From: an uncultured Verrucomicrobiae bacterium
GTDB lineage: Bacteria; Verrucomicrobiota; Verrucomicrobiia; Limisphaerales; UBA11358
Direction of reading: 5' to 3'
Assembly (NCBI GenBank): GCA_963764035.1
Contig: CAVXQV010000004.1
Span: 157,340-221,339, forward strand
Length of the DNA: 64,000 bases
Position 1 is the first letter of the stretch, and every line of letters starts with the position of its first letter. Both the position numbers and the translations under genes were made by a program. Positions 5,636 to 34,220 of this stretch are shown here, in pieces. The notes beneath the pieces were generated by a model. That model saw only the letters and a program-made list of their open reading frames with translations. It searched no databases and was not told where the DNA came from.

Positions 5636-5908
5636 GCCTGCGGGAGGTCCGGGCTTATGGCCGGAACATTTTCCCGCACCTACAGAACATCCGCAGGCGC
5701 CTGCGGCTCGTCCGTGCTCACCTGCGGCTGCTTCGGGCATACCGACGGCTGGTTCGGGCATACCGACGGCTCGTCCGGGCTTATGGCCGGAGCATTCTCC
5801 CATACCTGCGGAGCGTCCGGGCATACCTGCGGCGCCTCCGTGCCCGCCTGCGGCCCGTCCGGGCTTATGCCCGGAACACTCTCCCACACCTGCGGAACTT
5901 CCGCAGGT
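5636..5908. repeat. Degenerate 21-bp tandem repeat, 13 units, with 63-bp higher-order structure
   Basis: Units phase exactly at 21 bp, with consensus roughly ACCTGCGGnnCnTCCGGGCAT. The triplets 5636-5698, 5762-5824 and 5846-5908 resemble each other (GTCCGGGCTTATGGCCGGAaCAtTcTCCCaCACCTGCGG). Confidence 0.7.
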
Positions 5909-16143: not shown

Positions 16144-17169
16144 ATGACGCGCTTCTACGAGCAACTAGCCGCCGCGCTGGACGAGAACCGGCCATTCGTG
16201 CTGGCGTTGATTTCCGGCACCAAAGGCTCCAGCCCGCAGCGCATCGGCGCCAAGGCGCTGTTCTTTCCCGACGGCAAAATGTCCGGCACGCTCGGCGGCG
16301 GCTGTCTCGAAGCCGAAGTCCATTCGCGCGCGAGAAAGGCGATGAAGACCGGCGAGTCCTCCACGTTTGACATGGTGCTCGACCACGATTTCGGCTGGGA
16401 CGACGGCCTGATCTGCGGCGGCAGCGTCAGCGGCCTGATTCTGCCGCACGCGGCGGAAGCGGCGGAACTCTGGCGCAAACTCGTCGCCGTCACCGAGCCA
16501 ATCCGTTGGGGCGTGAAAAAGGATTTCTCCGTCGCGCTGGTTTCTCCACCAGTCTCGCGTAGCGTAGCCGTCTCGGCTGCGGGTTGCGGCGGCGTCTCGC
16601 CGCCAGCTCAAACACCAGGCGGGACGCCGGGTGAACTCGCAGGCGAGGCCGCCTGCGCTACGCCGCATTGGCTTTACACGGAAACCGTCGCGCCGCCTTC
16701 GGATTTATGGATTGCCGGTTCGGGCCACGTCGCGCAGGCCGTCGCGCCGCTCGCGCTGCAACTGGATTTTGCCGTGACGGTTTTCGACGACCGGCCGGAA
16801 CTGGCGAACCACCAGTTTTTCCCGCCGGAAACAAAACTGCGCGTCGGCGGCTGGCATGAACTGCTGAAAATGCCGCTGCCGAAATCGCCGGCCTTCGGTC
16901 TCATCGTCACCCGCGGCCACCAGCACGACGCGCTGGTGCTGTCCGATTGGATCCGGTTGCCGTTTGCGTTTCTTGGCATGATTGGCAGCCGGCGCAAGGC
17001 GCGCATCATGCGCGAGAATTTCATCAAACAACAAATCGCCACGGCGGAGCACTTCGACAAAATCGCCTGTCCGGTCGGCGTGGACATTGGCGCGGTCGGC
17101 ACGCAGGAAATCGCCGTGAGCGTCATGGCGCAATTCATCCAAAAGCGGGCGGAGAAACGTGACGCGTGA
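16144..17169 (+). CDS. XdhC/CoxI-family molybdoenzyme maturation protein
   Basis: N-terminal FVLALISGTKGSSPQRIGAKALFFPDGKMSGTLGGGCLE, C-terminal Rossmann part LWIAGSGHVAQAVAPLA...GLIVTRGHQHD. Confidence 0.9.
   Translation: MTRFYEQLAAALDENRPFVLALISGTKGSSPQRIGAKALFFPDGKMSGTLGGGCLEAEVHSRARKAMKTGESSTFDMVLDHDFGWDDGLICGGSVSGLILPHAAEAAELWRKLVAVTEPIRWGVKKDFSVALVSPPVSRSVAVSAAGCGGVSPPAQTPGGTPGELAGEAACATPHWLYTETVAPPSDLWIAGSGHVAQAVAPLALQLDFAVTVFDDRPELANHQFFPPETKLRVGGWHELLKMPLPKSPAFGLIVTRGHQHDALVLSDWIRLPFAFLGMIGSRRKARIMRENFIKQQIATAEHFDKIACPVGVDIGAVGTQEIAVSVMAQFIQKRAEKRDA
16557..16663. repeat. GC-rich palindromic repeat-like segment embedded in the XdhC interdomain linker
   Basis: Termini GCGTAGCG (16557-16564) / CGCTACGC (16656-16663), with inner hairpin GGCGGCG-TCT-CGCCGCC. 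Translated as VAVSAAGCGGVSPPAQTPGGTPGELAGEAACAT between the two XdhC domains. Confidence 0.45.
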
Positions 17170-20629: not shown

Positions 20630-20726
20630 GAACATTCAACATTCAACATTCAACATCGAACATCCAATGGCCGGTGCATTGGAAATTGTTGAGCGTTGGG
20701 CGTTGAATGTTGAATGTTGAATGTTT
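20630..20726. repeat. Long imperfect hairpin built from TTCAACA heptamers, between the large and FAD subunit genes
   Basis: GAACATTCAACATTCAACATTCAACATCGAACATCCAATG pairs with CATTGGAAATTGTTGAGCGTTGGGCGTTGAATGTTGAATGTTGAATGTT. Confidence 0.7.
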
Positions 20727-20737
20727 CTTTTCGACAA

Positions 20738-21703
20738 ATGAAAGCCTTTCAATACGCCACCGCCCATTCGACCGACAGCGCCCGCGACCTGGCCGCCGGC
20801 CACGGCGCCTACATCGCCGGCGGCAACGACCTGCTCGGCCTGCTCAAGGATTATCTCGTTCCCGCGCCGGACATCCTCGTCAACATCAAGTCGCTGCCCG
20901 GCCTGAACCAGGTTCAACCCGGCGACAAAACCTGGACCATCGGCGCGCTTGTCACCGTCGGCGAAATCGAGCGCCACGCGGAAATCGCCAAGGCCTTTCC
21001 CGGCCTGCGCGACGCCGTGATGGAAATCGCCTCGCCGCAAATCCGCAACGTCGCCACCGTGGGCGGCGACCTCGCGCAGCATTCGCGCTGCTGGTATTTC
21101 CGCCAGCGCGACGTGCCGTGCATGAAGAAAGGCGGCGACCTCTGCTACGCCCGCAACAGCGAGAACCGCTACCACAGCCTGTTCACCGGCACCGACTGCA
21201 TCAGCCCGGTCGTGTCGTCCCTGGCCGTGATTTTTGCCGCGCTCGACGCCACCGCCATCGTGCTGCGCGACGGCAAGGAGACGCCCATGAAAATGGCCGA
21301 TCTTTACCAGAAAGCGTTCACCGATACGCTCGCGCACAATTCGCTCAACCCCGGCGATTTGATTGTCCGCGTGGAAATCCCCGCCGCGCGCAACCGCAGC
21401 GCTTATTTGCAGGCCAGCGACAAACACACGTTCGACTGGGCGCTGGTCAGTTGCGCCGCCGCGGCGAATGTCGTGGACGGAAAATTAAGCCAGCCTCGCG
21501 TGGCGCTTGGCAGCATTTCGCCCGTGCCGCATCAGGTCGAGGCCGCGAACCAGTTTCTCGACGGCAAGACGCTGGACGACGCCACCGCGTCGCAGGCGGC
21601 GGACATGATCCTGGCCGGGGCGAAGCCGCTCGAATTCAACGGTTACAAGGTGCCGATGGCGCACGCGCTCATCCGGCGCGCGCTGCTCAAACTGAAAGCT
21701 TGA
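20738..21703 (+). CDS. FAD-binding medium subunit (CoxM/XdhB/PaoB-like)
   Basis: MKAFQYATAHS...AYIAGGNDLLGLLKDYL, IRNVATVGGDLAQ. The ORF-track start at 20714 lies inside the heptamer repeat, so I prefer ATG 20738. Confidence 0.9.
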   Translation: MKAFQYATAHSTDSARDLAAGHGAYIAGGNDLLGLLKDYLVPAPDILVNIKSLPGLNQVQPGDKTWTIGALVTVGEIERHAEIAKAFPGLRDAVMEIASPQIRNVATVGGDLAQHSRCWYFRQRDVPCMKKGGDLCYARNSENRYHSLFTGTDCISPVVSSLAVIFAALDATAIVLRDGKETPMKMADLYQKAFTDTLAHNSLNPGDLIVRVEIPAARNRSAYLQASDKHTFDWALVSCAAAANVVDGKLSQPRVALGSISPVPHQVEAANQFLDGKTLDDATASQAADMILAGAKPLEFNGYKVPMAHALIRRALLKLKA

Positions 21704-21707
21704 CGCC

Positions 21708-21911
21708 ATGAAAACGACTTTTTGCAGACATTTGCGGACCAAGGCCATGTTTGTCGGTGCCACGCCGGAGGAGGCGTTTGCCGAGAAACCCGACGGGGAA
21801 GACCGGTCGTGCCATTTCTGGTGCAACCGCACGCAGACCGTCGCCGGCCTGGACGACCAGCCCGTTCACAAGGACGCCTGCCGGCCGGGTCGCAATTGCT
21901 TCGAGGAATAA
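21708..21911 (+). CDS. Small Cys-rich protein (67 aa), unknown function
   Basis: MKTTFCRHLRTKAMFVGATPEEAF...CHFWCNRTQTVAGLDDQPVHKDACRPGRNCFEE. Starts 5 nt after the FAD-subunit stop and has five Cys. I recall similar small ORFs in related phyla but did not verify this. Confidence 0.5.
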   Translation: MKTTFCRHLRTKAMFVGATPEEAFAEKPDGEDRSCHFWCNRTQTVAGLDDQPVHKDACRPGRNCFEE

Positions 21912-22039
21912 ACGGTGAGGCGCGCCGCTCCGCGTGCGTCGTTCGGGGTTTCTGCAAACGTCGGTGGCAAGGCCCCTGACCGCGGACTGATTGTGCCAGA
22001 TTGGCGCACGGAGATTCATTTTACCCGCCAGTAAAGTCT

Positions 22040-22354
22040 CACGAGACGCGCGTCTCGCGTCACGAGACGCGGATCAAACGTCACGAGAGGCGCGTCTCGC
22101 GCCACGAGACGCGGATCAAACGTCACGAGACGCGCGTCTCGCGCCACGAAACGCGGAACAAACGTCACGAAACGCGCGTCTCATGCCACGAGACGCGGAA
22201 CAAACGTCACGAGACGCGCGTCTCATGCCACGAGACGCGGAACAAACGCCACGAGATTCGCGTCTCGCGTCACGAGACGCGGAACAAACGCCACGAGATT
22301 CGCGTCTCGCGTCACGAAATTATCGTCTCGCGTCGCGAGATCCGCGTCTCGTCA
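22040..22354. repeat. Tandem array of 15 x 21 bp (7.5 x 42 bp) with a 16-bp palindromic core
   Basis: Type A units (CACGAGACGCGCGTCTCGCGT, core CGAGACGCGCGTCTCG) alternate with type B units (CACGAGACGCGGAaCAAACGT) in exact 21-bp phase. 22229-22270 and 22271-22312 are identical 42-mers. Confidence 0.95.
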
Positions 22355-22570
22355 CGCAAATTTCCCGCTTTTCTTGGCAAAATGGGCATAAGCCTGATAC
22401 CGCTGTGCCAAATGTGTGCCACCCGGCGGGAGTCTGGCCTTGGTGAATGCGGCAGTCGTTTCGTGTCTCAAATTGACACGAATGCCGTCAAACGTCGCCT
22501 CGCGGTCCCGCGCGCCGTTGCTGCCGGAAATCAATCAACCGTCTGGCCGCCGCCGATGAGATTGCGCGGA

Positions 22571-22620
22571 TGATTTACGGCGCGGCCACCGACGGCGCGA
22601 ACCGGCTGCGTTACTCTTGC
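22571..22620 (+). repeat. 50-bp dispersed repeat, copy 1 (upstream of the SseB-like gene)
   Basis: TGATTTACGGCGCGGCCACCGACGGCGCGAACCGGCTGCGTTACTCTTGC. 47/50 identical to 23594-23643, same orientation. Confidence 0.85.
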
Positions 22621-22757
22621 TGCGAAGACACCGGCGGCCTGGTCAGAGGCAGACGCGAAATGAGCCGTTTGGGAAACGGCGAAAGGAATTTGGCGAAACA
22701 TCCCGGTTTTTTAGTTGATTGTTTTCAAAGGCAGGCACATTTTGCCCCTGCTGGGTT

Positions 22758-23564
22758 ATGTGGAAATCGAATGCCGAACTCGAAGAAGCCTTTGCCAACG
22801 CCCACCAGGGCATGGAACAAACGGTGAACTTTTTCCGGCTGTTGCTCGAACGCAACCTGACTTTCACGGCGCCTTATCATCCGGAAATTGAAGGCCAGCA
22901 TCAGATCGGCAGCGACGGCACCCTGATTGTCACCACGTGGAAGATCGGCGGCGAGGAAATCATTCCCATTTTCACTTCGCCGGAGCGGCTGGACGAGGCG
23001 ATGCAAGGCCGCGCCAAACCGGGCGAACGTTATGCCGCCGGCGAGATGATTGGCCGCGAACTGCTCAAAGGTTTTGCCGCGCCCGGCAACCGGTTGCGCG
23101 TGGCCATCAATCCCGGATGCTCCTGCGGCACCCATTTTCTCGACCCGCAACGCGTGCAAGCCATCCTTGACGGCTCGGCGCTGGTCATTCCCACGCCGGG
23201 CGAACTCGCGATGAATGGGCTGGTCATCTCGCTGCCGGACCGGCTGCCGGTGTCGTTACGGGAGCCGTTGAGTAAATTTTTCGCGGGCCTTCCGGAAGTC
23301 AAGGCGGCGTGGCTGTTTTACGAGGAAGAACCCAGGAAACCGTTTGAGCAGGTCTATGTGTTGGGAATAGCGACTGCCGGCGGCGACGCGCACGAAATCC
23401 GCCATGAAGCCGAACTGGCCATTGCCGGACTATGCCCGCCGGAATGGAGTTCGCGCGCCATCATCATGGACGCGGCCGATCCCGGCTTTGTTGACATCAT
23501 GCGTTGCCAGCCATTTTATGCGGCGGCGGATTTTCAACCACCGCCGAAACCTCCGGCGACCTAA
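22758..23564 (+). CDS. SseB-family protein (two-domain, function unknown)
   Basis: N-terminal part LIVTTWKIGGEEIIPIFTSPERLDEA, C-terminal part LPEVKAAWLFYEEEP...VYVLGIATAG. The layout resembles SseB_N + SseB_C. Start chosen at ATG 22758. Confidence 0.6.
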   Translation: MWKSNAELEEAFANAHQGMEQTVNFFRLLLERNLTFTAPYHPEIEGQHQIGSDGTLIVTTWKIGGEEIIPIFTSPERLDEAMQGRAKPGERYAAGEMIGRELLKGFAAPGNRLRVAINPGCSCGTHFLDPQRVQAILDGSALVIPTPGELAMNGLVISLPDRLPVSLREPLSKFFAGLPEVKAAWLFYEEEPRKPFEQVYVLGIATAGGDAHEIRHEAELAIAGLCPPEWSSRAIIMDAADPGFVDIMRCQPFYAAADFQPPPKPPAT

Positions 23565-23593
23565 TCCACGAATTTCACGGATGAACGCGCAGG

Positions 23594-23643
23594 TGATTTA
23601 CGGCACGGCCACCGACGGCACGAACCGGCTGCGTTACTTTTGC
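23594..23643 (+). repeat. 50-bp dispersed repeat, copy 2 (downstream of the SseB-like gene)
   Basis: TGATTTACGGCACGGCCACCGACGGCACGAACCGGCTGCGTTACTTTTGC. Confidence 0.85.
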
Positions 23644-23836
23644 ACGAAGGCATGGCGATTTGGTCAAAGCAAGGCGCGTCTTTCCGATTTCCCCAACTGC
23701 CATCTCCCATCTCCTATCTCCCAATTGACCTCATGCGCTCACGTTTTTCGGTCGGAAATCAATAAACCGCTTGGCGCGAGGAAGTGAAGAAAACAACTCA
23801 ACCCTTGCACACTTTTGCTTGCCAATCCTGCGCCGC

Positions 23837-23857
23837 TGTGGTAATTGTATTACCACA
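23837..23857. promoter_or_regulatory. Candidate operator: perfect palindrome upstream of the XRE gene
   Basis: TGTGGTAAT-TGT-ATTACCACA, with 9-bp arms, ends 12 nt before ATG 23870. A weak TTGCCA (23819-23824) - 17 nt - TAATTG arrangement overlaps it. Confidence 0.5.
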
Positions 23858-23869
23858 ATACACAAAACT

Positions 23870-24238
23870 ATGTTCGGAACCTTCATCAAAGAATTAAGGG
23901 CGCGAAAGCGCCTCGGCCTGCGCGAATTCTGCCTGGAGCACGGCCACGACCCCAGCAATTGGAGCAAAATCGAACGCGAGGTGCTGTCGCCGCCGCGTGA
24001 CGAGGAAACGCTCCGCAAGTGGGCCAGGCAACTCGGCGTCAAACCCGGCTCGGATGACTGGCACAAATTCCACGACTACGCCGCCGTGGACGCCGGGCGC
24101 ATCCCCGGCCACGTCATGGACAATGAGGAACTGCTTGCCAAACTCCCCGCCTTCTTCCGCACGCTCTCCGGCCACAAACCCTCGCGGAAAGATTTGGAAA
24201 AACTGATTAAAATCATCAGAAGCGCCAACCAATCTTGA
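23870..24238 (+). CDS. XRE-family helix-turn-helix transcriptional regulator
   Basis: MFGTFIKELRARKRLGLREFCLEHGHDPSNWSKIEREVLSP is a Cro/C1-type HTH. Its stop overlaps the next gene's start. Confidence 0.85.
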   Translation: MFGTFIKELRARKRLGLREFCLEHGHDPSNWSKIEREVLSPPRDEETLRKWARQLGVKPGSDDWHKFHDYAAVDAGRIPGHVMDNEELLAKLPAFFRTLSGHKPSRKDLEKLIKIIRSANQS

Positions 24239-24921
24239 ATCACCCGGCAAAATTCAAAGCCCCATTCATCCCCAAGGAACGAATCTGGCAGGAAACCGAA
24301 AAGCTGCGCGCAGCCCATCCGGCGGCTCGCCCCCTCCGCGTCGGACGGGGAGAGGGTGGTCAACGACCGGGTGAGGTGTCGTCTTGCATCGTTCCAATCC
24401 TCGAACTCGCCGAATTTGATCTCGGCCTCGAACTGATTCCGGCGGAAAGCTTGCGCGAAGAACTGGAAATGGACGCGCTGCTTATGGGCGATTTGAAATC
24501 CGTTCTGGTGGACCGGCGCGCCTTCATGAACCCGCGCATGGAATACCGCCTGCGCTTCTCCGTCGCGCACGAAATCGGCCATCTCATTTTGCACCGGGAC
24601 ATCTACGGCGGGCGGAAACACGCCAGCGCCCGGGAATGGTTCGATTACATCGCCGCCATTCCCGACGTGGAATACGGCTGGGTGGAATGGCAGGCTTACG
24701 AATTTGCCGGACGCCTGCTCGTCCCGCCCGATGCGTTGCGCCAGGCCTTTCAATCCGCCATCAAATCCGCGCAAGCCGCCGGCTATTCCGATTGGCAGGC
24801 TGCCGACGAAGCGGCGCTAGACTATATCGCCACGCGCATCGCGCCCAAATTCGGCGTCTCGGCGGACGTGATTGCCAAACGGTTGCGCGTGGAAAAACTT
24901 TGGCCGCCAGTCAATTCTTAA
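24235..24921 (+). CDS. ImmA/IrrE-family zinc metallopeptidase
   Basis: HEXXH motif in RFSVAHEIGHLILH, and downstream EWQAYEFAGRLLVP. The TTG start overlaps the XRE stop (TTGA). Confidence 0.85.
   Translation: MNHPAKFKAPFIPKERIWQETEKLRAAHPAARPLRVGRGEGGQRPGEVSSCIVPILELAEFDLGLELIPAESLREELEMDALLMGDLKSVLVDRRAFMNPRMEYRLRFSVAHEIGHLILHRDIYGGRKHASAREWFDYIAAIPDVEYGWVEWQAYEFAGRLLVPPDALRQAFQSAIKSAQAAGYSDWQAADEAALDYIATRIAPKFGVSADVIAKRLRVEKLWPPVNS
24329..24378. repeat. GGAGAGGG/GGTGAGG-type repeat-like segment inside the ImmA/IrrE coding region
   Basis: CCCCTCCGCGTCGGACGGGGAGAGGGTGGTCAACGACCGGGTGAGGTG is translated as ARPLRVGRGEGGQRPGEVSS. It resembles the intergenic hairpin family at 25031, 28742, 34053, 34166, 60098 and 60162. 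Confidence 0.45.
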
Positions 24922-25030
24922 CCACGGAAGCGCACGGATGAACACGGATTTTCACGAATTCAAATGCGCTGAAGGCGCTACGGAAATTAGCCCGGTGTTG
25001 CCCCGAAAGCATTCGGGGCTACGCCGGGAA

Positions 25031-25091
25031 AACGTCCCACAAAATAATTCTCCCTCTCCTCGCCGAACGAGGAGAGGGCCGGGGTGAGGAG
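25031..25091. repeat. Hairpin repeat element, left flank of the methyltransferase/Z1 cassette
   Basis: CGTCCCACAAAATAATTCTCCCTCTCCTCGCCGAACGAGGAGAGGGCCGGGGTGAGGAG. The last 30 nt (25062-25091) are the exact reverse complement of 28742-28771. Confidence 0.9.
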
Positions 25092-25097
25092 TCAGAA

Positions 25098-26480
25098 TTA
25101 TTCTTTAACCAAAGTAAGAATGACTTCCTCGCGCATCCGTTTGTGAAGTGCTGCACCTGCGCCGCGCTTGCCGGGCGGTGGAAGATAGCGGCGGTTTTGT
25201 GGCAACGGACGCCGCCGGGCCGGTCGAACGGTGAATCCTGCTTCAGCGGCCAAGGCAATTACACATTCAGAATTTTCCACGAAGGTGTCGCGAAGATTGC
25301 AATTGCCGATAACATATACAGCCTTGCCGCCGGGACGAAGCACACGATAATTTTCACACACACACCTACGTAAGTCCCGCACATAGCGCCGAAGCATCCC
25401 GCGACTCCGGTTTTGCAAGTGGCCATCGCACATTTGCTCGATGATATTCTCCGTGGCTTTATCATTGTCATCGGCATCAGCCGAAACTTCCGCGCCCACA
25501 TTTGTTGAGCGCAATTCGCGAGTTTCTTCAACGTCGTGCCCCATCCACACCAAGGAAAATCTGTGGCCTCGCAAATAATCAATTGCATTTAGATATGGTG
25601 GCGAGGTTATCACCATGTCCACACTTTCATCATCCAATGGCAATTCGCGAGCATCGGCATTTTTGACCGAAGCTTGCGGACGGTTCGGCGCGATGCCGAT
25701 AAACGGTGCAGCTTTCGTGATTTGCTTCACCGCCCGCTCGAAATGGTCAAAGGCAATCAATGGTGCTTTGTCGTAGGTTTTGTGTGGGCGACTGTGCGAA
25801 ACGTCCATTGCAAGGGACACGCCCGATTGTTTTGTAATAATGAGGCGTGAAAATGCGCACCAAAGTAGCCGTTTGATTTGCTGGTCGTGCGTGCGCGAAA
25901 TGCTTTCGGCCAAGGCTGCCAGTTGCTTTCGATTTGTGTCGTCGAACCAATACCGCACAAAAATTTTTGTTTCCTCATCAGCGCCGCGCGGATAGGCATC
26001 TCGCTGTTTTATTTTTGTCGCACGTTCCCTGGCTCGGTCCAAAACTTGACCAGCCTTTTTTTCCGTGGCAGCAACATCCACATCTGAAGACCAAGCGCCA
26101 GCAATGAGAACAGCAAGCGGATCACGGTCGAATCCAATGGCCTCGTGGCCGCGCAGCCGCGCAGTGACGAGCGTTGTGCCAGAGCCGGTCATTGGGTCGA
26201 GGACGCATAGTCGTGCGCCATCGTCGGGCAGTTCACGCCAAACGATCTCCGACGCCATGCGCGCTGGAAACGGATGAATTGGGCGGAGTCGGTTCATTCT
26301 TTGCATCATTAAGACAGTCGCCTTTTGGTGGCGCAAGTTTAGTTTTACAATTCTCGCAGGAATGCAATCATGCAAGGCACCCAGTCGAATTTCTGGGATC
26401 GCCATATCAGGCTTTTGAAGATTAACCGCCATTGCCATGTTCAATCTTAACGAACTGAAAAAAGAAACAACAAACGACAA
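25098..26480 (-). CDS. DNA amino-methyltransferase (N6-adenine or N4-cytosine), SPPY type
   Basis: AdoMet motif I VLDPMTGSGTTLV, preceded by IHPFPARMASEI. Catalytic motif IV VITSPPYLNAIDY lies ~190 aa downstream. The start may be at 26441 or 26435 (internal Met codons), and the 5-prime end overlaps the divergent Z1 gene. Lower GC than the flanks. Confidence 0.88.
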   Translation of the reverse strand: MSFVVSFFSSLRLNMAMAVNLQKPDMAIPEIRLGALHDCIPARIVKLNLRHQKATVLMMQRMNRLRPIHPFPARMASEIVWRELPDDGARLCVLDPMTGSGTTLVTARLRGHEAIGFDRDPLAVLIAGAWSSDVDVAATEKKAGQVLDRARERATKIKQRDAYPRGADEETKIFVRYWFDDTNRKQLAALAESISRTHDQQIKRLLWCAFSRLIITKQSGVSLAMDVSHSRPHKTYDKAPLIAFDHFERAVKQITKAAPFIGIAPNRPQASVKNADARELPLDDESVDMVITSPPYLNAIDYLRGHRFSLVWMGHDVEETRELRSTNVGAEVSADADDNDKATENIIEQMCDGHLQNRSRGMLRRYVRDLRRCVCENYRVLRPGGKAVYVIGNCNLRDTFVENSECVIALAAEAGFTVRPARRRPLPQNRRYLPPPGKRGAGAALHKRMREEVILTLVKE

Positions 26481-28287
26481 CCGTTACGAACGGCGGCTGG
26501 CAAAATTGGTTTCGTTGGGCCAGCAGGTTGACCGCATCAAGGGCGTTGTTGAAAACGCAGTCACGAACATCCAAGCCGGACAAAAATCTTTTGTCATCTA
26601 TGGCGAACCGCAGAGCGGCAAAACCGAGATGATGATTGCCCTGACCGCGAAGTTGCTGGATGTCGGTTTCAAATTGGTGATAGTGTTGCTAAACGACAGC
26701 GTGCAACTGCTCGGTCAAAACCTGGAGCGATTTCAGCGATCCGGTTTAGCGCCGCTGCCAAAAAAGTTTAGCGAGATACTGCCGTCCGAAGTGAGCATCG
26801 GCGACCACCAGTGGGTTATCTTCTGCAAAAAGAATTCCAGCGACCTGCAAAAGCTCTTGGAAAAGATCGAGGGCCATCCGAACCGCGTTATCATTGACGA
26901 TGAGGCTGACTACGCCACGCCGAATTCCAAGGTGAATAAAAATGAAAAAAGCAAAATCAACAAATTAACCGGTGACTTGATTGGCGATCAAGGCACATAC
27001 ATCGGCGTCACCGCCACTCCAGCCCGCCTCGATTTGAACAAGACGCATCAAAATCAAAATGAGCACTGGATAGACTTTCCGCCGCATTCAAACTACACCG
27101 GCCAAGATTTATTTTTCCCCGTTTCAACCGAAAATCTGCCCTACCGGCTGACCTTCCTGCCAGATGCCGGCGACGATCCTAAGTATTTGCGAGAAGCTCT
27201 TTTTAGTTTCATGGTGAACGCTGCCTACTTGAACGAGGTCATCAATGAAGCGGAGAAAAATTATTCAATTCTGATCCACACAAGCGGCAAAAAGGCAGAC
27301 CACTCGGTTGATTACACGAACATCGTCAAAATCTTTGAGGCGTTGAAGGCCGAGAAAAACTCCAATCATGCCGGCTATTTCAAAAGAATTTGGGAAATTG
27401 CCCATGAGCGATACCCAGAACACGCCGACGACATCACGAAATACATCATCACCAATCGCGACAGAAATAACCTCGTAGTGATGAACAGTGACAAGGAGGT
27501 CAACACCGCCGAAAACAGGACTGCAACCGACCCGACAGCGCCATTCACGATCGTCATCGGTGGCAACATCGTTTCACGCGGAGTGACATTCAATAACCTG
27601 CTCTCCATGTTTTTCACGCGCGACGTGAAGCACAAGCTCCAACAAGACACTTACATTCAACGCGCCCGCATGTTTGGCTCGCGCGGGGACTATCTGAACT
27701 ATTTTGAACTCACGATACCGAAGCATTTGTATCTCGATTGGCAACAATGCTTCATTTTTCACCGGCTCTCACTTGAATCGCGGAAGCTAAATAAAAAATC
27801 TCCCGTCTGGCTCGACGGCGAACGCATCACCGCCGTCGCCAGCGCGAGCATAGACAATGCGAATGTTTTGGTGGACAAAGGGGAGATGAGCTTTGCACTT
27901 TTCGATTTCGACGAACAAACCATCGAGGACATCATCAGTCAGGACATCAAACCAATTCAGAAGGTCAAAGCTCTCGCAGAGCTTTTGGGGAAAAACTGTT
28001 TGCCGGGTTACCTGATCAATTACATTGAGAGCTTTTGTCCGGCTGGCGACAAGTCCATCGCGGTTCACCCGCCAAACTCAATTGGCAATTATACCGACAA
28101 AGAAGGAGAAGTGGACAAGGCCACAATCACGCGCACAAAAGGATTCATCGGCAAGAGTCAGATGGAAGTCAACAAATACCCTGACGCGGTTCACCACATC
28201 AATGTGGTTTACAATGATACCGGTAAAGCCCGTGTCTTCTATAAATACGAAGGAAGCATTCGGTTTTTGAAAACTGGCAAAAAATGA
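26437..28287 (+). CDS. Z1-domain P-loop ATPase (helicase-like), restriction/defence-associated family
   Basis: Walker A IYGEPQSGKTEMM, Walker B/DEAD-like VIIDDEADYATPNS, GVTATPARL. The Z1 signature is GGNIVSRGVTFNNLLSMFFTRDVKHKLQQDTYIQRARMFGSRGDY. 616 aa and clearly AT-richer than the host. Confidence 0.85.
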   Translation: MFNLNELKKETTNDNRYERRLAKLVSLGQQVDRIKGVVENAVTNIQAGQKSFVIYGEPQSGKTEMMIALTAKLLDVGFKLVIVLLNDSVQLLGQNLERFQRSGLAPLPKKFSEILPSEVSIGDHQWVIFCKKNSSDLQKLLEKIEGHPNRVIIDDEADYATPNSKVNKNEKSKINKLTGDLIGDQGTYIGVTATPARLDLNKTHQNQNEHWIDFPPHSNYTGQDLFFPVSTENLPYRLTFLPDAGDDPKYLREALFSFMVNAAYLNEVINEAEKNYSILIHTSGKKADHSVDYTNIVKIFEALKAEKNSNHAGYFKRIWEIAHERYPEHADDITKYIITNRDRNNLVVMNSDKEVNTAENRTATDPTAPFTIVIGGNIVSRGVTFNNLLSMFFTRDVKHKLQQDTYIQRARMFGSRGDYLNYFELTIPKHLYLDWQQCFIFHRLSLESRKLNKKSPVWLDGERITAVASASIDNANVLVDKGEMSFALFDFDEQTIEDIISQDIKPIQKVKALAELLGKNCLPGYLINYIESFCPAGDKSIAVHPPNSIGNYTDKEGEVDKATITRTKGFIGKSQMEVNKYPDAVHHINVVYNDTGKARVFYKYEGSIRFLKTGKK

Positions 28288-28727
28288 TTCGGGATTTTGA
28301 ATTCTATCACGGCCTTGTGTTCGCGCGGATTCTCCACGGAACGCAACGTCCGTTGTATCTTCGACCTTTTCAGTCAGTTTCAAACGCCTCCTATATCGTG
28401 AACGATACGGTCGGCATCTACATCAAGTATTCGTCAAAGCGTATGACGCCGTGGCGATTTACTTTCATGAAAGAGCATCAGGAAGAAATTGATTTGCTGA
28501 AATCTAATTTTGAGAAAGTGTTTCTGGTCTTGGTGTGCAGCGATGATGGTGTGGTTTGTTTGAATTATGCGGAACTAAAACGAATCCTCGACAACCAGCA
28601 CGACCCAATCGAATGGATTAGCGCGACGCGGCACAAACGGGAAATGTATTTGGTCAGAGGATCAAACGGAAAATTGGATTTCAAAATTGGTCAGAGTGAG
28701 TTTCCGAGCAAATTATTTGCCGACTGA
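28284..28727 (+). CDS. 147-aa protein of unknown function, translationally coupled to the Z1 gene
   Basis: ATGA start/stop overlap at 28284-28287 and the same low GC. Sequence MIRDFEFYHGLVFARILHG...SYIVNDTVGIYIKYSS...KVFLVLVCSDDGVVCLNYAELKRIL. No motif was recognised. Confidence 0.7.
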   Translation: MIRDFEFYHGLVFARILHGTQRPLYLRPFQSVSNASYIVNDTVGIYIKYSSKRMTPWRFTFMKEHQEEIDLLKSNFEKVFLVLVCSDDGVVCLNYAELKRILDNQHDPIEWISATRHKREMYLVRGSNGKLDFKIGQSEFPSKLFAD

Positions 28728-28741
28728 CTTACCTTGATTGG

Positions 28742-28830
28742 CTCCTCACCCCGGCCCTCTCCTCGTTCGGCCCGCCTACGTCCGACTTCAGCGTGACGAG
28801 CAAGGAGAGGGAGATTTGTTTTGTGGGACG
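28742..28830. repeat. Hairpin repeat element, right flank of the methyltransferase/Z1 cassette (inverted relative to 25031-25091)
   Basis: CTCCTCACCCCGGCCCTCTCCTCGTTCGGC (28742-28771), then a 29-nt extra loop, then CAAGGAGAGGGAGATTTGTTTTGTGGGACG (28801-28830). The reverse complement of the last block matches 25033-25062 at 27/30. Confidence 0.9.
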
Positions 28831-28994
28831 CAAACCCAGGGTATTCGCTGCGCTCAAACCCTGGGCTAATATCTTTCGCCCCGATGGGGCTTTTAATTTG
28901 CATTGCCCTTAGCGTCTCTGCGTCTTTGCGTTGAAAATCTTTTCGTGTAGTTCGTGTGTTTCGCGGTTAAAGCTCCGCGCTTCGTGGCCCAATT

Positions 28995-29690
28995 TTATTC
29001 CCCGCCTTCCATGTGGTAATACATGGATTGCAGGGCGATTTTGCCCGGGCCGGTGAACCGGTTCCAAACAATGTTCCCGGCGCTGGCAAAGAAGCCCGTC
29101 GAGAGTTTCTGGAACATCGTCTGCATCTGCACGGAGCGGTCTTTGTAAATCCAGCCGCCCGGCTCGATGTCTATCTCCTCGCCCGCCGCGAGCGTCACTT
29201 CAAACACGTTGCCGAAGCCGTGCAGCCACAGGATGCCCTCGCGTTGCGGGCAGGAAAAGGTGTCAATGAAAAAGCCGGTGCCGCCGAGCAGCATGTTGGC
29301 CGCGCCTTTCACGCGGGTGAAGGTGTAATCCACGTTGTCGGTGGCGGCGAGCCATTGATGTTCGCGCACGTCTACGCTTTGCCCGGGCGCCAGGTGCAAT
29401 CCCAGGACGTGGCCCGCGCCGTCGCGGCTGAAGGCGATGCGGCCCGGTCCGGTCGCGCCGGTGAGCAGGAAGGGCATGCCGGCGAGCATCCGCTTGAGGC
29501 CGCCTTTCACCGGATGAATGGCGATCTGCACGGACGGGTCTTTCCACAGCAAAATGTGGTGCTCGAAATAGACGCCGGTGTTGCTCAATTCAATCTGCAA
29601 CGCGGGCACCAGTTCGCCCTGGATGTGGTAGGTGACGCCGCCGAAAGTTTCGTCCTGTTTGTTGGTCGGTAATAAGATTGGAACGGCCAT
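28995..29690 (-). CDS. AIM24-family protein (DUF124/TIGR00266-like)
   Basis: 231 aa with LLGGTGFFIDTFSCPQREGILWLHGFGNVFEVTLAAGEEIDIEPGGWIYKD, characteristic of the AIM24 beta-helix family. Confidence 0.8.
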   Translation of the reverse strand: MAVPILLPTNKQDETFGGVTYHIQGELVPALQIELSNTGVYFEHHILLWKDPSVQIAIHPVKGGLKRMLAGMPFLLTGATGPGRIAFSRDGAGHVLGLHLAPGQSVDVREHQWLAATDNVDYTFTRVKGAANMLLGGTGFFIDTFSCPQREGILWLHGFGNVFEVTLAAGEEIDIEPGGWIYKDRSVQMQTMFQKLSTGFFASAGNIVWNRFTGPGKIALQSMYYHMEGGE

Positions 29691-29749
29691 GATTTTGCCT
29701 TTGGTTGATGGATTGGTTATTCGTTTCTTTTCGACTTAAAATTTAGCAT

Positions 29750-29974
29750 TTAGCCTCTGGCCTTTCGCGCGTAAGGCGTCGGTGTTTCGCGCAGCGCCAT
29801 GGCTTCCGTGGCGGGCATCCAGACGGCGGCGCCATCGCGCCATACGGCCAGTGGACGGCCGCGCCGCCGATGGTCTTCCACCACTTTGGCGACGGCTTCC
29901 GTCAGCGCCCGCATTGCCTGTTGCGTGAGCGATGGCTTGGTTGTTTTCTTCATGGCGTCAGGTATGCGCGGCAT
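29750..29974 (-). CDS. Small hypothetical protein (74 aa)
   Basis: MKKTTKPSLTQQAMRALTEAVAKVVEDHRRRGRPLAVWRDGAAVWMP. Ordinary composition with alternative starts at 29974 or 29953. No motif was recognised. Confidence 0.4.
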   Translation of the reverse strand: MPRIPDAMKKTTKPSLTQQAMRALTEAVAKVVEDHRRRGRPLAVWRDGAAVWMPATEAMALRETPTPYARKARG

Positions 29975-30443
29975 ACGTCAATTCCTTTGACCCCACTTGC
30001 CCAAACATTTTTCAGCATGGCGTTTTAGGAACTCCGTGTCAGGCGCAAATTTCCTCGGAAGCAACAGCGGGGCGAAGGCTGAAGGCTGACGTCTAAAATT
30101 CATTTCCGGGAAAAGCGGATGACGCGGCGCAGCCGTCGCGGCTGCGGGTTCCAGCACCGTCCCGGTGCGCGTTCCAACTGGCGGCGGGACACCCCCTTAA
30201 CCGAATCCATGCAGTTGAAAAGCGGCGTGGCGCTCTGCGTGGCTGCGACGCCCCCGTCGCAAAGCGTGCCGGCGACGCCTCGTCGCCGGAAATGGCCGAC
30301 AAACCAAACGGTGCGCCATCCATTTCGCGCGGCGAAGACGCCGCGCCCACTTTCTGCGACGGGGCGTCGCAGCCACGCGTTCCTTGCCATGCGCGCGAGT
30401 GTGCGCCGGAATTTTATTGGCGTCAATTTGTGAAATTCGTGTC

Positions 30444-32303: not shown

Positions 32304-32405
32304 GCTGGCAGTCTTGCAGAAACAAGCCCACCGCGCAAGCGGCGGCGCGGTTTGTCATGTGTTTCCGCCCGGCGGGTTGGAAGCGGTCAATCCGGTGAGA
32401 TTTTT

Positions 32406-33381
32406 TCACCCGCCGATGGCGGTCATCGGGCGGCAGGGCTGGTATTGATTGCGGAACTGGTGTTCCTGCGGCTTCAAGCGCAAGCGCGGTTTCCAGCAAC
32501 TCCTTCAACGCGCCATCGTCGGCGCCGTGCCGCAACGCCGCGCGCAAATCCACCTCGATGTGATTGCCCAGGCACGGACGCACCTTGCCGTCGGCGGTGA
32601 GGCGCATCTTGTTGCAATTGTCGCAGAAATGCTGGTTCGTCAGCGCGCCGATGAAGCCGACAAGCGCGCCGATCTGTTTCAGCAGATAATATTGCGCCGG
32701 GCCGTTGCCGAGCCGGAGGTCGGGCTGCGGCACCAGTTCGTCCTTTTGCGCCAGCAATTGCATCGCCTCGCCGCACGGCAGGAAATTTTTCTCCGTCAAA
32801 ACGTCCGTCGTCGTCAGCGGCATCAATTCGATGAGCCGCAGCGGCAGGCCGTGCTCGGCGGCGAACAACACCAGCGGCCAGAGTTCCTGCTCGTTCACGC
32901 CGCGCATCAGCACGCAGTTCAATTTCACGCGTTCAAATCCCGCCGCCACCGCCGCGCGGATGCCGGCCAGCACGCGCGCCACATCGCCGCCGGTGATGCG
33001 GTGATAAATCGCCGGGTCCAGCGCGTCGAGGCTCACGTTCACCGTGCGCAAACCGGCGTCGCGCAGCGTTTGCGCCAGCGCGGCCATTTTCATTCCGTTG
33101 GTGGAAAGCGCGACCGTTTCGACGCCGGAAATCGCGGTCATGGCGCGGACGATTTCCGGCACGTCGCCGCGCACGAGCGGTTCGCCGCCGGTCAGCCGGA
33201 ATTTGCGGAAGCCCAGTCCCGCCGCCACGCGCGCGACGCGGATGATTTCGTCGGCGGTCAGATGGTCGGGCTTGCTTTCCCAGCCCTTGTAACCCTCCGG
33301 CATGCAATAGAGACACCGCTCGTTGCACCGGTCGGTGACCGAGATTCGCAGGTAATCAATTTTGCGTCCAAACGGATCCAT
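32406..33381 (-). pseudogene. moaA: GTP 3',8-cyclase MoaA (radical SAM), frame interruption near the C-terminus
   Basis: CNERCLYCMP radical-SAM cluster, and CDNCNKMRLTADGKVRPCL second cluster. After ...ETALAL the true tail KPQEHQFRNQYQPCRPMTAIGG-stop (ending at 32406) is in another frame. The ORF track instead runs on to 32269. Confidence 0.88.
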
Positions 33382-34165: not shown

Positions 34166-34220
34166 TTCTCCCTCTCCGCTCCCGCAGCGGGAGGGGAGAG
34201 GGCCGGCGTGAGGTGAGGGC
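34166..34220. repeat. GGAGAGGG hairpin repeat with GGTGAGG tail (mogA-moaC spacer, copy 2)
   Basis: CTCCCTCTCCGCTCCCGCAGCGGGAGGGGAGAGGGCCGGCGTGAGGTGAGGGCGG. Confidence 0.8.

Follow-up and report, generated by a model that had tools for sequence, protein, structure and literature searches.

Type III antitoxins (toxI, cptI and tenpI) consist of tandem repeats that precede a nuclease gene and share its strand, with a terminator-like structure between the two, and the repeats of the ToxI and CptI antitoxins measure about 34–45 nt. The pneumococcal BOX element is organised as boxA-(boxB)n-boxC, in which the number of boxB modules varies and hairpins are formed (PMC3049150). REP sequences are GC-rich stem-loops, with an 8-bp stem and a 4–6-nt loop, which cluster in intergenic regions, often between convergent genes, and REP-rich Verrucomicrobia have been described, for example Opitutus terrae (PMC3733652). 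In the sopC site of the F plasmid a 43-bp unit is repeated 12 times, and SopB binds the 16-bp inverted repeat within each unit (PMC3177203). Here we describe an array of 21-bp units in a 64-kb stretch of DNA (the window), for which a sequence-only reading had proposed the function of a centromere, an iteron array or a regulator landing pad. Alignment with homologous loci shows that the array is the variable, rapidly evolving centre of a non-coding element of about 0.5 kb (window 21979–22484) whose flanks are conserved. The explanation that we favour overall, with a probability of roughly 45%, is a conserved non-coding element that is linked to vsr and would be used as a single-stranded nucleic acid of the minus strand. 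The parts of the element, and the island that adjoins it, are as follows.

21979–22039, minus strand: left flank of the element, conserved, by BLAST and nhmmer homology to the related loci L143, L118, L142, L144 and L146.
21992–22009, minus strand: L motif TGTGCCAGATTGGCGCAC, by pattern match; its family form is TGTGCCAGATTGkCGCAC.
About 22021–22036, minus strand: small A/T-stem palindrome TTTACCCGCCAGTAAA in the left flank.
22040–22354, minus strand: tandem array of 15 exact 21-bp units in the order AbAbAbAbAbAbAAA, by repeat analysis, pairing and strand asymmetry.
22334–22354, minus strand: terminal unit CGCGAGATCCGCGTCTCGTCA, by locus alignment and pattern matches.
22355–22403, minus strand: right-flank spacer, conserved, by locus alignment.
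22364–22386, minus strand: small palindrome CCCGCTTTT-CTTGGC-AAAATGGG in the right-flank spacer; a perfect 11-bp inverted repeat in L144.
22404–22421, minus strand: R motif TGTGCCAAATGTGTGCCA (TGGCACACATTTGGCACA on the minus strand), more strongly conserved than any other part of the element.
22460–22482, no strand assigned: inverted repeat TTCGTGTC-N7-GACACGAA, the last block common to the window and L143.
22485–32405, no strand assigned: strain-specific island of 9.9 kb, an insertion on the right side of the element when compared with L143, gene content by Pfam, PADLOC and NCBIfam; context, outside the element.

On the window's + strand the element runs from the L motif through about 30 nt, 6–15 units depending on the locus, the conserved terminal unit and about 50 nt containing the small palindrome to the R motif and repeats of the GACACGAA type. 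Cutting from 22040 confirmed 15 units of 21 bp in the window, and TRF returned a period of 42 (6.6 copies, 93% matches, score 432) at 22039–22317 and a period of 21 (14.9 copies) at 22039–22350. The A units are of the hairpin type (CACGAGAC-GCGC-GTCTCGCG), and the 5' core of the b unit, GAGACGCG, can pair with the 3' core of the A unit on either side. The strict alternation of two unit types that had been claimed for the array holds for the first 12 units and breaks down in the last three, which are all of the palindromic type. The 16-bp palindrome ascribed to type A is exact (CGAGACGCGCGTCTCG) at 22042 and 22126, the other A units departing from it by 1–2 bases or more, and the half-site said to open every unit occurs in its exact form, CGAGACGC, in only 8 of 15. 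The two adjacent 42-mers at 22229–22270 and 22271–22312 are identical, as reported, and the array thus includes a very recent 42-bp duplication. At one mismatch or fewer, CACGAGACGCG has 19 sites in the 64-kb window, every one of them inside 22040–22353, where 3.19 are expected per 64 kb and 19 was reached in 0 of 100 shuffles; the array motif is found nowhere else in the window outside 22040–22354. The 9-mer GACACGAAT is not enriched in the window. The interior of the array is locus-specific, unlike the terminal unit, which is conserved between loci with the consensus CGCGAGATyCGCGTCTCGTCA. The R motif is made of two TGGCACA direct repeats 11 bp apart (7+4+7); it has no second site in the window, recurs unchanged on five further contigs representing four distinct loci, and differs by one base in L118. 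The L and R motifs are similar to each other and in direct orientation, and 2–3 GACACGAA-like repeats lie at the equivalent relative place in related loci.

Both long + strand ORFs across the array (21991–22446 and 22001–22573) are open, as had been noted from the sequence, and translation of the array into a heptad-repeat protein (frame ...RHETRVS RHETRNK...) had been named as an alternative. A period that is a multiple of 3, a frame open across the array in every locus and the ORFs called there by gene callers would all fit such a protein. However, none of the three + frames of the window has a stop across the array, the pseudo-ORFs share neither N-termini nor start codons, and in L118 the frame is closed by a TAG between the array and the conserved right flank. 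In the right flank the three codon positions have changed about equally often (16/36, 17/36 and 16/35), no Pfam match exceeds the cut-off, and the complementary covariation of adjacent units described below is a constraint on nucleic acid, not on protein. The stop codon, the even substitutions and the unconserved starts lead us to regard the array as non-coding, and a translated repeat protein as scarcely credible.

The window copy lies between the 3' end of an XDH-type operon and the 9.9-kb restriction-modification (R-M) island; its placement between a molybdoenzyme operon and an SseB-like gene, at the edge of accessory DNA, had been recognised correctly. The island contains dehydrogenase-like gene fragments, the SseB-like gene, HTH-XRE and an ImmA/M78 peptidase, a type II DNA methyltransferase with a Z1/ResIII helicase, AIM24 and an LRR protein, and has the 3' end of moaA at its right end. 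Its right boundary is given by L143 5435–5542, which matches window 32406–32570 at 94–96%, and also by L107 9253–9367, which matches window 32399–32514. The flanking chromosomal housekeeping genes (chorismate synthase, TrpA, XDH, MoaA and MoeA) are kept in relatives, and no tRNA or tmRNA is present in the window. An exact-protein look-up of the FAD subunit, taken with its 329-aa start, gave no recorded match. The window copy lies amid gene fragments and other small repeats. The SseB-like gene was considered as a partner of the array and rejected, its 70%-identity homologues lying in unrelated housekeeping contexts without an array.

Homologous copies of the element were recovered on seven other metagenomic contigs, representing six distinct loci and five genomic contexts besides that of the window, and about 25 further copies are known as array-derived pseudo-ORFs. 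L118 and L121 were found by a metagenome pattern scan and L142, L143, L144/L145, L146 and L168 through array-derived pseudo-ORFs; an HMM search of 1.84 billion cluster representatives gave 28 pseudo-proteins of this kind (E ≤ 1e-3). Samples with the element include JGI 3300042090 and ENA ERZ27249931, ERZ27245399 and ERZ27249819. The hosts of the recovered copies are uncultured Verrucomicrobiota. Each recovered locus has one copy of the element; the 64-kb window contains no other, nor do related Verrucomicrobial loci totalling about 100 kb, and the contigs of the four nearest relatives (L106–L109) have none. A scan of the genome collection for the phased half-site returned 105 stretches, all of them chance or unrelated GC-rich tandem repeats and 0 homologous; a metagenome scan with the pattern of A core plus b unit gave 0 matches; and in a viral scan the array pattern gave 0 matches and the 16-bp palindrome alone isolated single sites only. 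All 90 of the 90 units in eight arrays are exactly 21 bp long and the A/b order is kept, while the number of units per array ranges from 6 to 15, with 6 versus 12 in the close relatives L146 and L142.

These comparisons bear directly on the proposal of a plasmid centromere (sopC/parC-like) or of replication iterons, working with a ParB/ParR or a Rep protein. The formal resemblance to sopC is real, 42-bp tandem units with a 16-bp inverted repeat standing here against 43-bp units with a 16-bp inverted repeat there (PMC3177203), and a 21-bp period is typical of iterons. Nevertheless, Pfam scans of the neighbouring and larger ORFs of the window found no ParA, ParB, ParR or Rep domain, upholding the earlier remark that no ParA/ParB or Rep is encoded next to the array, and no par or rep genes lie near the related copies. 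Chromosomal housekeeping genes flank the array, there is no plasmid or phage signal, in line with the empty viral scan, and the region is 58–64% GC, with no AT-rich unwinding stretch in 21900–22760. Unit sequence is not conserved between homologous arrays. Since the array is absent in L106–L109, and since its sequence and copy number (6–15) vary freely in L143 and five other loci with no associated binding-protein gene, the centromere or iteron reading fails the refutation test that had been set for it beforehand, and we consider it very improbable. With the chromosomal context, the missing ParA/ParB/Rep and the strand-asymmetric G·U pairs set out below, none of the functions first proposed, the landing pad included, is supported. 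That the array is not CRISPR is borne out: the b-unit 'spacers' are themselves repeated, the units are 21 bp long, and there are no cas domains among the scanned neighbours.

Elsewhere the element is linked to vsr, which encodes the very-short-patch repair endonuclease. Going out from the L side of the element, the start codon of vsr is reached after about 50–115 nt in L142/L146 and in L144/L145, two independent contexts, and vsr reads on what is the window's minus strand. Next to the element, Pfam identifies Vsr in L142 and in L144/L145, the L142 gene also scoring above the NCBIfam cut-off for vsr, and L142 and L144 can be aligned all the way from the L motif to the start of vsr. Most contexts of the element are restriction-modification or DNA-modification islands, and the neighbours of vsr in related loci are Dcm-type methylases and EcoRII-C. 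There is no vsr in the 64-kb window and no gene downstream of the window element, on either strand, within its reach; comparison with L143 and L142 indicates that the window element is cut off just left of 21979, where the vsr-start-proximal segment of L142, L144 and L146 is missing. Across the loci compared, the element usually sits just upstream of vsr in R-M islands, directly so in the most complete copies, and the window copy is a shortened, vsr-less orphan. Because the flanks are conserved in the window and in L143 without a downstream vsr, a pure vsr-leader role is an insufficient explanation.

A tandem array ahead of a nuclease gene also recalls type III toxin-antitoxin systems, and the repeat RNA could in principle be processed to units that neutralise or control the nuclease. 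The layout of L142 and L144 agrees with this, having a motif on the promoter side, 3–7 repeats of 42 nt, hairpin/U-rich modules and a same-strand nuclease gene, and so do a unit length inside the ToxI/CptI range and the setting in a defence island. Yet the downstream gene is a bona fide Vsr (by Pfam, and above the NCBIfam cut-off) and not a ToxN/CptN/TenpN endoribonuclease, and its position beside Dcm-type methylases and EcoRII-C is the one expected for repair. PADLOC found no toxin-antitoxin match for the window neighbours, the window and L143 copies are without any downstream gene, and the unit sequences are unconserved, whereas antitoxin repeats must fit their toxin. An antitoxin role therefore strikes us as highly implausible.

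The way in which the arrays evolve can be seen from L143, the orthologous locus, where the XDH genes and the 67-aa ORF to the left of the window element are found again. Between the window and L143 the two flanks of the element are 85.6% and 81.2% identical and the coding genes 79.5–81.9%, the remaining spacer is unalignable and the array interior is entirely different, and the homology ends at 22484. More generally, interior units are homogenised within each array and different between arrays and edge units are ancestral, which together with the varying unit number is the signature of slippage or unequal exchange. If functional, the element would be an example of an array whose length changes by slippage while its flanks and its hairpin potential are kept.

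An alternative is a selfish or neutral repeat, either a low-copy, non-autonomous sequence of the BOX or REP/BIME kind or a minisatellite in a decaying mobile vsr/R-M cassette, with no host function and with the window copy as a relic. Conserved ends around variable tandem internal modules match pneumococcal BOX (PMC3049150). The changing copy number (6–15, and 6 versus 12 in the close pair), the absence from the contigs of the four nearest relatives, the mobile defence islands in which the element is found and a window copy that lacks its vsr-proximal part, amid gene fragments and small repeats, speak for the same conclusion. On the other hand, BOX and REP number 100+ copies per genome, whereas here there is one copy per locus, with none further in the window or the related loci, and 28 pseudo-ORF representatives among 1.84 billion proteins; the flank motifs are in direct orientation, and neither terminal inverted repeats nor a target-site duplication came to light. 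In addition, the flank identity between the window and L143 equals that of the coding genes where the surrounding spacer is unalignable, and the complementary cores co-vary. We regard a selfish or neutral origin as possible but rather doubtful.

Base pairing bears on the form in which the array would be used. The core of each unit is 6–10 bp long and alternates in orientation, so that each unit is complementary to its neighbours, and the complementary cores co-vary between loci (GACGCG/CGCGTC in the window versus GACGGTAA/TTACCGTC in L142-type arrays). The b core pairs with both adjacent A cores in 88.4% of cells, compared with 78–79% in shuffles (0/500) and 24–56% when the partner is slid, and two core columns switch between CG and AU and between GC and CG, with 10–12 cells each. 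The non-Watson-Crick positions of A-type stems comprise 39 that read as A·C on the + strand, hence as G·U on the minus strand, versus 12 of the opposite kind, fully paired units number 21 on the minus strand versus 3 on the + strand, and columns 3/20 and 4/19 read on the minus strand as GU, GC or AU, with unpaired cells in 0–1 of 31. Stem mismatches that are A·C on one strand and G·U on the other favour use of the minus strand in single-stranded form, as RNA, rather than as duplex DNA. Because the units within an array are copies of each other, both signals come from few independent events, about 7 one way versus 2–3 the other for the asymmetry and 1–2 switches for the covariation.

Folding predictions point to the same strand. 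The more stable fold is that of the minus strand in 6 of 8 arrays, and the array with its right flank folds with z = –4.8 and –5.9; the minus strand is G+U-rich, and better folding is expected from this composition alone. The earlier prediction that the array would form a chain of hairpins if transcribed agrees with our analysis: a hairpin with a U-rich tail is called on the minus strand, in the same unit register, in the arrays of the window, L142, L143 and L144. A loose scan of the minus strand gave 4, 3, 2 and 1 terminator-like sites in the window, L142, L143 and L144, respectively, which is barely above shuffles. In these modules a 3-nt spacer (ACG) precedes the U run, which would make them poor intrinsic terminators, and the interior units of L143 are without them. 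RNAalifold on both flanks, including the right-flank palindrome, gave no covariation support, with positive (unfavourable) terms, and Rfam gave 0 matches in the window at the gathering score and, at E ≤ 5, generic miRNA-hairpin noise far below threshold.

A consensus scan called no sigma-70-type promoter in any locus, and a TTGAAA-N17-GGTAAT sequence read by eye upstream of vsr fails the criteria of that scan. On the minus strand the R motif (TGGCACACATTTGGCA) has a sigma-54-like GG-N10-GC spacing, but its –12 element is TGGC and not TTGC. With the consensus TGGCAC-N5-TTGC (invariant GG and GC 10 nt apart), 1-mismatch matches number 3 in the window versus 7.6 expected, which is within chance for the window.

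The regularity of the units can also be explained by a platform of duplex DNA, on which a dimeric protein would polymerise along alternating half-sites two helical turns apart, or which would act as a phase-preserving, A-tract-bent spacer between L and R that loops the DNA to control the adjacent promoter. This is a non-plasmid version of the 'regulator landing pad' suggested earlier. Units of exactly 21 bp (two turns) throughout the eight arrays, despite heavy sequence turnover, and the likeness of L to R, with its 7+4+7 direct repeat, fit such a platform no less well than they fit an RNA. The L-to-R distance varies from 223 to 413 bp yet stays modulo 10.5 within 1.5–3.5, a phasing statistic that comes from about 3 independent indels. 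A-rich runs (AAAC/AAAAC) at a fixed unit position and the location upstream of vsr in L142 and L144 also speak for it. However, a duplex platform gives no reason for A·C mismatches on one strand only, and the period is also explained by common descent and concerted evolution. The interiors of the window and L143 arrays are wholly different with no co-varying regulator gene beside either, and no DNA-binding gene is consistently adjacent to the element, HTH genes being found in some contexts only. We consider a duplex-DNA function unlikely.

Taken together, pairing and strand asymmetry suggest that the array probably functions at the RNA level. If the element is a vsr-linked, minus-strand single-stranded nucleic acid, as we favour, the minus strand would be transcribed, most likely towards vsr, and the array would fold into stacked hairpins with a U-rich stretch after each. 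Ahead of vsr, this stack could serve as a structured leader, an insulator or a leaky terminator stack; otherwise it may be an independent repeat RNA. We propose that the array is free to drift in unit number since the constraint is on having hairpins and not on their exact sequence. The window copy would be either a relic or a copy that retains the insulator role alone. A far-reaching version, which we advance as a speculation and think improbable, is a new class of tandem-repeat regulatory RNA. The minus strand would be transcribed from the R-motif side and the hairpin-plus-U modules would set the transcription or translation that reaches vsr, or the RNA of an orphan copy would act in trans, and unit number would be a slippage-tunable rheostat for very-short-patch repair in mobile R-M islands. 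Control of vsr would matter because Vsr endonuclease in excess is mutagenic.

If functional, the element would represent a cis-regulatory or RNA module not described before, one associated with the vsr gene of mobile R-M cassettes, in a phylum, Verrucomicrobiota, with almost no characterised non-coding elements; if it is merely a selfish or decaying repeat, the finding is an ordinary one. In either case, gene callers mistake such arrays for genes of 'hypothetical proteins', and public databases contain at least 28 cluster representatives of this spurious kind; the same array-derived pseudo-ORFs offer a means to trace such arrays. A sopC-like architecture alone is no evidence for a centromere.

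Among known systems, CRISPR arrays share with the element regularly spaced palindromic repeats and a conserved flank on one side, but the element has no unique spacers, its 21-bp units are too short (CRISPR repeats measure at least 23 bp), and its degenerate units adjoin the conserved flank rather than being distal to it. The units of sopC are near-identical, conserved with their own ParB and located beside sopAB on a plasmid, whereas the element is chromosomal and without par genes, its units vary between homologous arrays and their mismatches are strand-asymmetric. In comparison with type III antitoxins, the related loci also have a tandem array, of repeats about 36–45 nt long, upstream of a same-strand nuclease gene in a defence island, with terminator-like structure in between, but Vsr is a DNA mismatch endonuclease and not a ToxN-fold RNase, and the window copy has no downstream gene. 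Like REP/BIME sequences, the element is a cluster of short GC-rich intergenic stem-loops, for which roles in termination and mRNA stabilisation have been proposed (PMC3733652). REPs, however, have an unpaired GTAG or CGTC tag and tens to thousands of copies, mostly as head-to-head dimers, head-to-tail tandem arrays being rare among them, whereas the element keeps a strictly head-to-tail 21-bp register and has a non-palindromic b unit, conserved unique flanks, a single copy in the window and no terminal tag. No RAYT transposase was seen in the loci examined. BOX elements are scattered in many copies, end in inverted repeats and are bordered by target-site duplications, and they have no sequence similarity to the element, which occurs once per locus near vsr/R-M genes, with direct flank motifs, 21-bp units with alternating cores and neither kind of terminal repeat or duplication (the repeat search found no terminal inverted repeat bracketing 21979–22484). 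The element nevertheless shares with BOX a non-coding, intergenic character, conserved end modules around a variable number of tandem internal modules, hairpins predicted if transcribed and proposed effects on the expression of neighbouring genes (PMC3049150).

The tandem array that the sequence-only reading had proposed was recovered both by reading 21700-22800 and by TRF, which reports a period of 42 over 22039-22317 (6.6 copies, 93% matches, score 432) and a period of 21 over 22039-22350 (14.9 copies). Cutting from 22040 yields the 15 units claimed, each exactly 21 bp, and the adjacent 42-mers 22229-22270 and 22271-22312 are indeed identical. There are two unit types, a palindromic type A (CACGAGACGCGCGTCTCGCGT) and a type b (CACGAGACGCGGAaCAAACGT), in the order AbAbAbAbAbAbAAA, so that the proposed alternation stands except for the last three units, which are all A. 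With at most one mismatch, the 11-mer CACGAGACGCG occurs 19 times in the window against 3.2 expected, each time inside 22040-22353. The half-site CGAGACGC, thought to be in every unit, is exact in only 8 of 15, and the 16-bp palindrome is present but has only 2 exact copies.

The window DNA is chromosomal and comes from an uncultured Verrucomicrobiota bacterium; among named homologues, the closest are MAG proteins annotated 'Verrucomicrobiae bacterium' or 'Verrucomicrobiota bacterium'. The array is set as follows.

Left of array: XdhC / Fer2 / MoCoBD / FAD-binding (YagS-like) operon
Ending at 21911, after this XDH-type operon: conserved 67-aa ORF
21979-22484: limits of the element (array plus conserved flanks)
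22758-23564, right of array: SseB-like gene
Further right, in order: HTH-XRE and ImmA/M78 pair; type II DNA methyltransferase with Z1/ResIII helicase; AIM24; LRR protein; moaA; moeA

No ParA/ParB/Rep, cas or ToxN-like gene was found among the window ORFs scanned, and a type III TA-like system is disfavoured as highly improbable. The window has no tRNA gene and no match to an Rfam family, and the element is without counterpart in Rfam 15. The SseB-like gene is bracketed by a 57-nt direct repeat (22564-22620 and 23587-23643, 91% identical) and lies within a second repeat pair (22518-22547 and 23746-23775). Because both 57-nt copies resemble, as read from sequence, a dehydrogenase-type gene at its C-terminal end (..IYGAATDGxNRLRY..), this gene looks like a cassette inserted with a duplicated gene 3' fragment. 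Inverted repeats at 25020-25094 and 28739-28843 (33 nt at 97% plus 44 nt at 80%) flank a low-GC block (47-53%) in which a 147-aa ORF accompanies the type II methyltransferase and Z1/ResIII helicase; this R-M-like pair therefore looks like a separately acquired cassette.

The array is absent from the four nearest relatives' contigs recovered (L106, 87-90% nucleotide identity to the window; L107-L109, 84-85%), in which similarity stops at the small-ORF end, an outcome that the sequence-only reading had named in advance as counting against it. With a chromosomal context and partner genes missing as well, the plasmid centromere or iteron suggested by the sequence-only reading fails, and we give it very little credence. 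A more distant relative, L143 (XDH genes 80-82% identical), has the same operon and 67-aa ORF, then a homologous element. At this orthologous locus the flanks are as conserved as genes, with 85.6% identity over 97 nt on the left and 81.2% over 154 nt on the right, reaching window 22484, compared with 79.5-81.9% for coding genes; the remaining spacer is unalignable, and the array interior is wholly different, the L143 units being mostly CGCGTGTTGCGCTGCAAACGG. Because L143 matches window 32406-32570 (moaA 3' end, 94-96%) about 320 nt past the element, the window holds a 9.9-kb island (22485-32405) inserted to its right. The moaA 3' end persists as a remnant in L107. It is an isolated fragment (window 32399-32570; L107 9253-9367; L143 5435-5542), 89-96% conserved, which relatives keep at that place without the remainder of moaA, and it is the right-hand anchor of a variable region in which each sequence carries its own cargo: L107 has a D12 methylase, L143 a PRK-family gene and the window the 9.9-kb island.

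A metagenome pattern scan found homologous arrays with homologous flanks on two contigs, L118 and L121. Because gene callers translate such arrays, querying proteins with the spurious ORF 22001-22573 returned four 'proteins', whose contigs are L142, L143, L144/L145 and L146. Among 1.84 billion cluster representatives, a profile search gave 28 pseudo-proteins (E<=1e-3) with two right-flank subtypes; one of these proteins led to the contig L168. The anatomy is identical in all copies, listed here in order on the window + strand.

21992-22009, + strand: L motif, TGTGCCAGATTGkCGCAC
Between L motif and array: ~30 nt holding a small A/T-stem palindrome
22040-22354 in the window: array, 6-15 units across copies, exactly 21 bp each
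Conserved terminal unit: CGCGAGATyCGCGTCTCGTCA
After terminal unit: ~50 nt holding a second small palindrome
22404-22421: R motif, TGTGCCAAATGTGTGCCA, unchanged on five further contigs that represent four distinct loci
After R motif: GACACGAA-type repeats

All 90 units in eight arrays are exactly 21 bp, with no indel. First and last units are kept between loci; the interior units of any one array have been homogenised and diverge from those of other arrays; and a close pair differs in unit number (6 in L146, 12 in L142), a turnover that slippage or unequal exchange (concerted evolution) would be expected to produce. Each locus has a single copy: nhmmer, run with profiles of the two flanks, detected no further one in the window or elsewhere in the recovered sequences. 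Presence/absence polymorphism and varying copy number would suit a selfish or neutral BOX/REP-like repeat or relic, but we find this rather unlikely: there is only one copy at each locus, neither TIR nor TSD is seen, and the flanks are conserved at the orthologous locus. Our data describe a conserved, low-copy, non-coding element built on a concertedly evolving 21-bp hairpin array.

A translated-protein reading was disfavoured to the point of near dismissal. All three + frames of the window array are open; the 'N-termini' of the pseudo-proteins are mutually unrelated, an in-frame TAG separates array from conserved right flank in L118, right-flank substitutions are even across codon positions (16/36, 17/36 and 16/35), and Pfam gave only sub-threshold matches. 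The R motif has sigma-54-like GG-N10-GC spacing, an upstream inverted repeat and TGGC as -12 element; with one mismatch the sigma-54 consensus was found 3 times in the window against 7.6 expected, which is not above chance, and we would treat the R motif only as a conserved motif. No sigma-70 promoter was called by consensus scan at the window, L142, L143 or L144. Extended to GTGTGCCAAATGTGTGCCAA, the R-motif sequence recurs directly after terminators in AT-rich viral or prophage contigs (viral L148-L151, L153, L155, L158 and L161; for example L149 81-96 and L150 13361-13376). The L149 and L150 copies follow a tyrosine-type integrase gene (read from sequence), 70-180 nt past its stop codon, and adjoin immR/immA-like genes, suggesting a position at or near an attachment site. 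This recurrence may be coincidental: 16-mer matches are expected by chance, the 3 additional matching bases are not.

Each unit contains a 6-10-bp core whose orientation flips from one unit to the next, each b core being complementary to both neighbouring A cores. The window, L118 and L121 share the pair GACGCG/CGCGTC; in L142, L144, L146 and L168 it is GACGGTAA(G)/(C)TTACCGTC, and the complementary cores co-vary. Across 31 A-b-A triplets, pairing cells reach 88.4%, compared with 78-79% in shuffles (0/500) and 24-56% with a slid partner, and two columns switch jointly (CG<->AU and GC<->CG, 10-12 cells each). This covariation is suggestive and not conclusive, as it reflects one or two independent switches only. 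At non-Watson-Crick positions of the intra-A stem, A·C on the + strand (G·U on the - strand) outnumbers the opposite 39 to 12. Columns 3/20 and 4/19 read GU, GC and AU on the - strand, with 0-1 of 31 cells unpaired. Together with this G·U bias, the count of fully paired units (21 on the - strand versus 3 on the + strand), the more stable - strand folding in 6 of 8 arrays, and the hairpins with a U-rich tail that a consensus scan called on that strand (window, L142, L143 and L144, all in one unit register), point to single-stranded use of the minus strand. The hairpin/U-rich modules are poor canonical terminators, since a 3-nt spacer precedes the U run, and no RNA covariation was found in either flank. 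A duplex-DNA protein platform or phase-preserving spacer would fit the exact two-turn period and the likeness of the two flank motifs; the strand asymmetry and a unit sequence that turns over freely without a co-varying regulator speak against it, making it unlikely.

The element recurs directly upstream of vsr, the very-short-patch repair endonuclease gene. In two different contexts (L142/L146 and L144/L145) its L side leads, through a conserved minus-strand stretch of ~50-115 nt, to the vsr start codon, the gene being supported by Pfam Vsr matches, an NCBIfam vsr score of 103.8 (cut-off 97.85) and alignment. L144 additionally carries EcoRII-C, two Dcm-type methylases and two HTH genes, and L118 adjoins a Gp37/Gp68-like gene (read from sequence) and a TcmP gene (NCBIfam match); from such neighbours, 4 of 6 contexts are restriction-modification or DNA-modification islands. 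We favour, at a probability of about 0.45, a model of minus-strand transcription in which the array acts through its hairpins. It could serve as a structured leader, insulator or leaky terminator stack ahead of vsr or, alternatively, as an independent repeat RNA. The window copy stops just left of the L motif, without the vsr-proximal stretch, and tblastn found no vsr gene in the window; this copy is therefore orphan and truncated, and may well be a relic. L143 retains slightly more of that stretch and likewise has no vsr gene. Several short 5' vsr fragments (M-A/P/S-D-V/I-F-S/T-K-x-K-R-S-E..) lie on both sides of the element (L142 10019-10110 and 10640-10690; L144 ~1230-1372 and 1823; L146 ~190-300 and ~630-680), one supplying the first codons of an unrelated 155-aa gene. 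From this scatter, it seems that recombination or insertion junctions in these islands form repeatedly at the vsr start region.

Other repeats were noticed in the same sequences. A second, unrelated and non-coding-looking array of the same 21/42-bp period lies at window 5700-5895, upstream of the gene 5999-6691; its units resemble CCTGCGGCnCGTCCGGGCATA, with TCCGGGCTTATGCCCGGA palindromes, and after them comes CCCCTTTTTGGCCAAAAC, similar to the small palindrome of the element's right flank. The presence of two palindromic 21-bp arrays within 64 kb suggests that the tendency is lineage-wide. Unrelated 21-bp-period arrays on the same GAGACGCGCGTCTC palindrome occur on L117 (~1155-1290, GGAGAnGCGCGTCTCC...) and L124 (~2625-2850, GAGACGCGCGTCTCAGAGTTG...), contigs selected by the search pattern. 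The short GC-rich repeat GGAGAGGGCCGGGGTGAGG is found in both orientations in the window (25071-25089, 28744-28762 and 34195-34213) and relatives (L107 5775-5944, within an extra 283-bp spacer separating XDH subunit genes; L146 1-17), and an in-frame stretch of the L142 vsr gene (..SPRPSPQRGEG..) resembles it. A dispersed ~105-bp repeat is common to the window (16558-16663 and 30127-30193, palindrome arms 30237-30254 / 30361-30378), L118 (196-305 and 6257-6360) and L121 (411-433), indicating that the latter two contigs come from related organisms. Heptamer tandem repeats occupy short spacers (window 20631-20725, 30074-30089 and 35263-35293; L144 8996-9026), with AACATTC x5 and GTTGAAT x3 between two XDH subunit genes and GAAGGCT x2-4 elsewhere; the AACATTC/GTTGAAT set is also in L144, and a GAAGGCT-type repeat sits beside the vsr start in L142. 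Coding repeats comprise a 282-bp unit (x5.7, 3343-4941) in a 657-aa protein with no Pfam match above curated cut-offs and a 147-bp unit (x4.4, 7059-7707) corresponding to the RCC1 repeats of a 462-aa protein (6776-8164).

Among known kinds, the element comes closest to the modular intergenic repeat, represented by pneumococcal BOX, boxA-(boxB)n-boxC (PMC3049150), and by REP/BIME clusters (PMC3733652). It differs from both in copy number, its strict head-to-tail 21-bp register, its alternating cores, its direct-type flank motifs and its association with vsr. Its likeness to sopC (PMC3177203) is architectural only.
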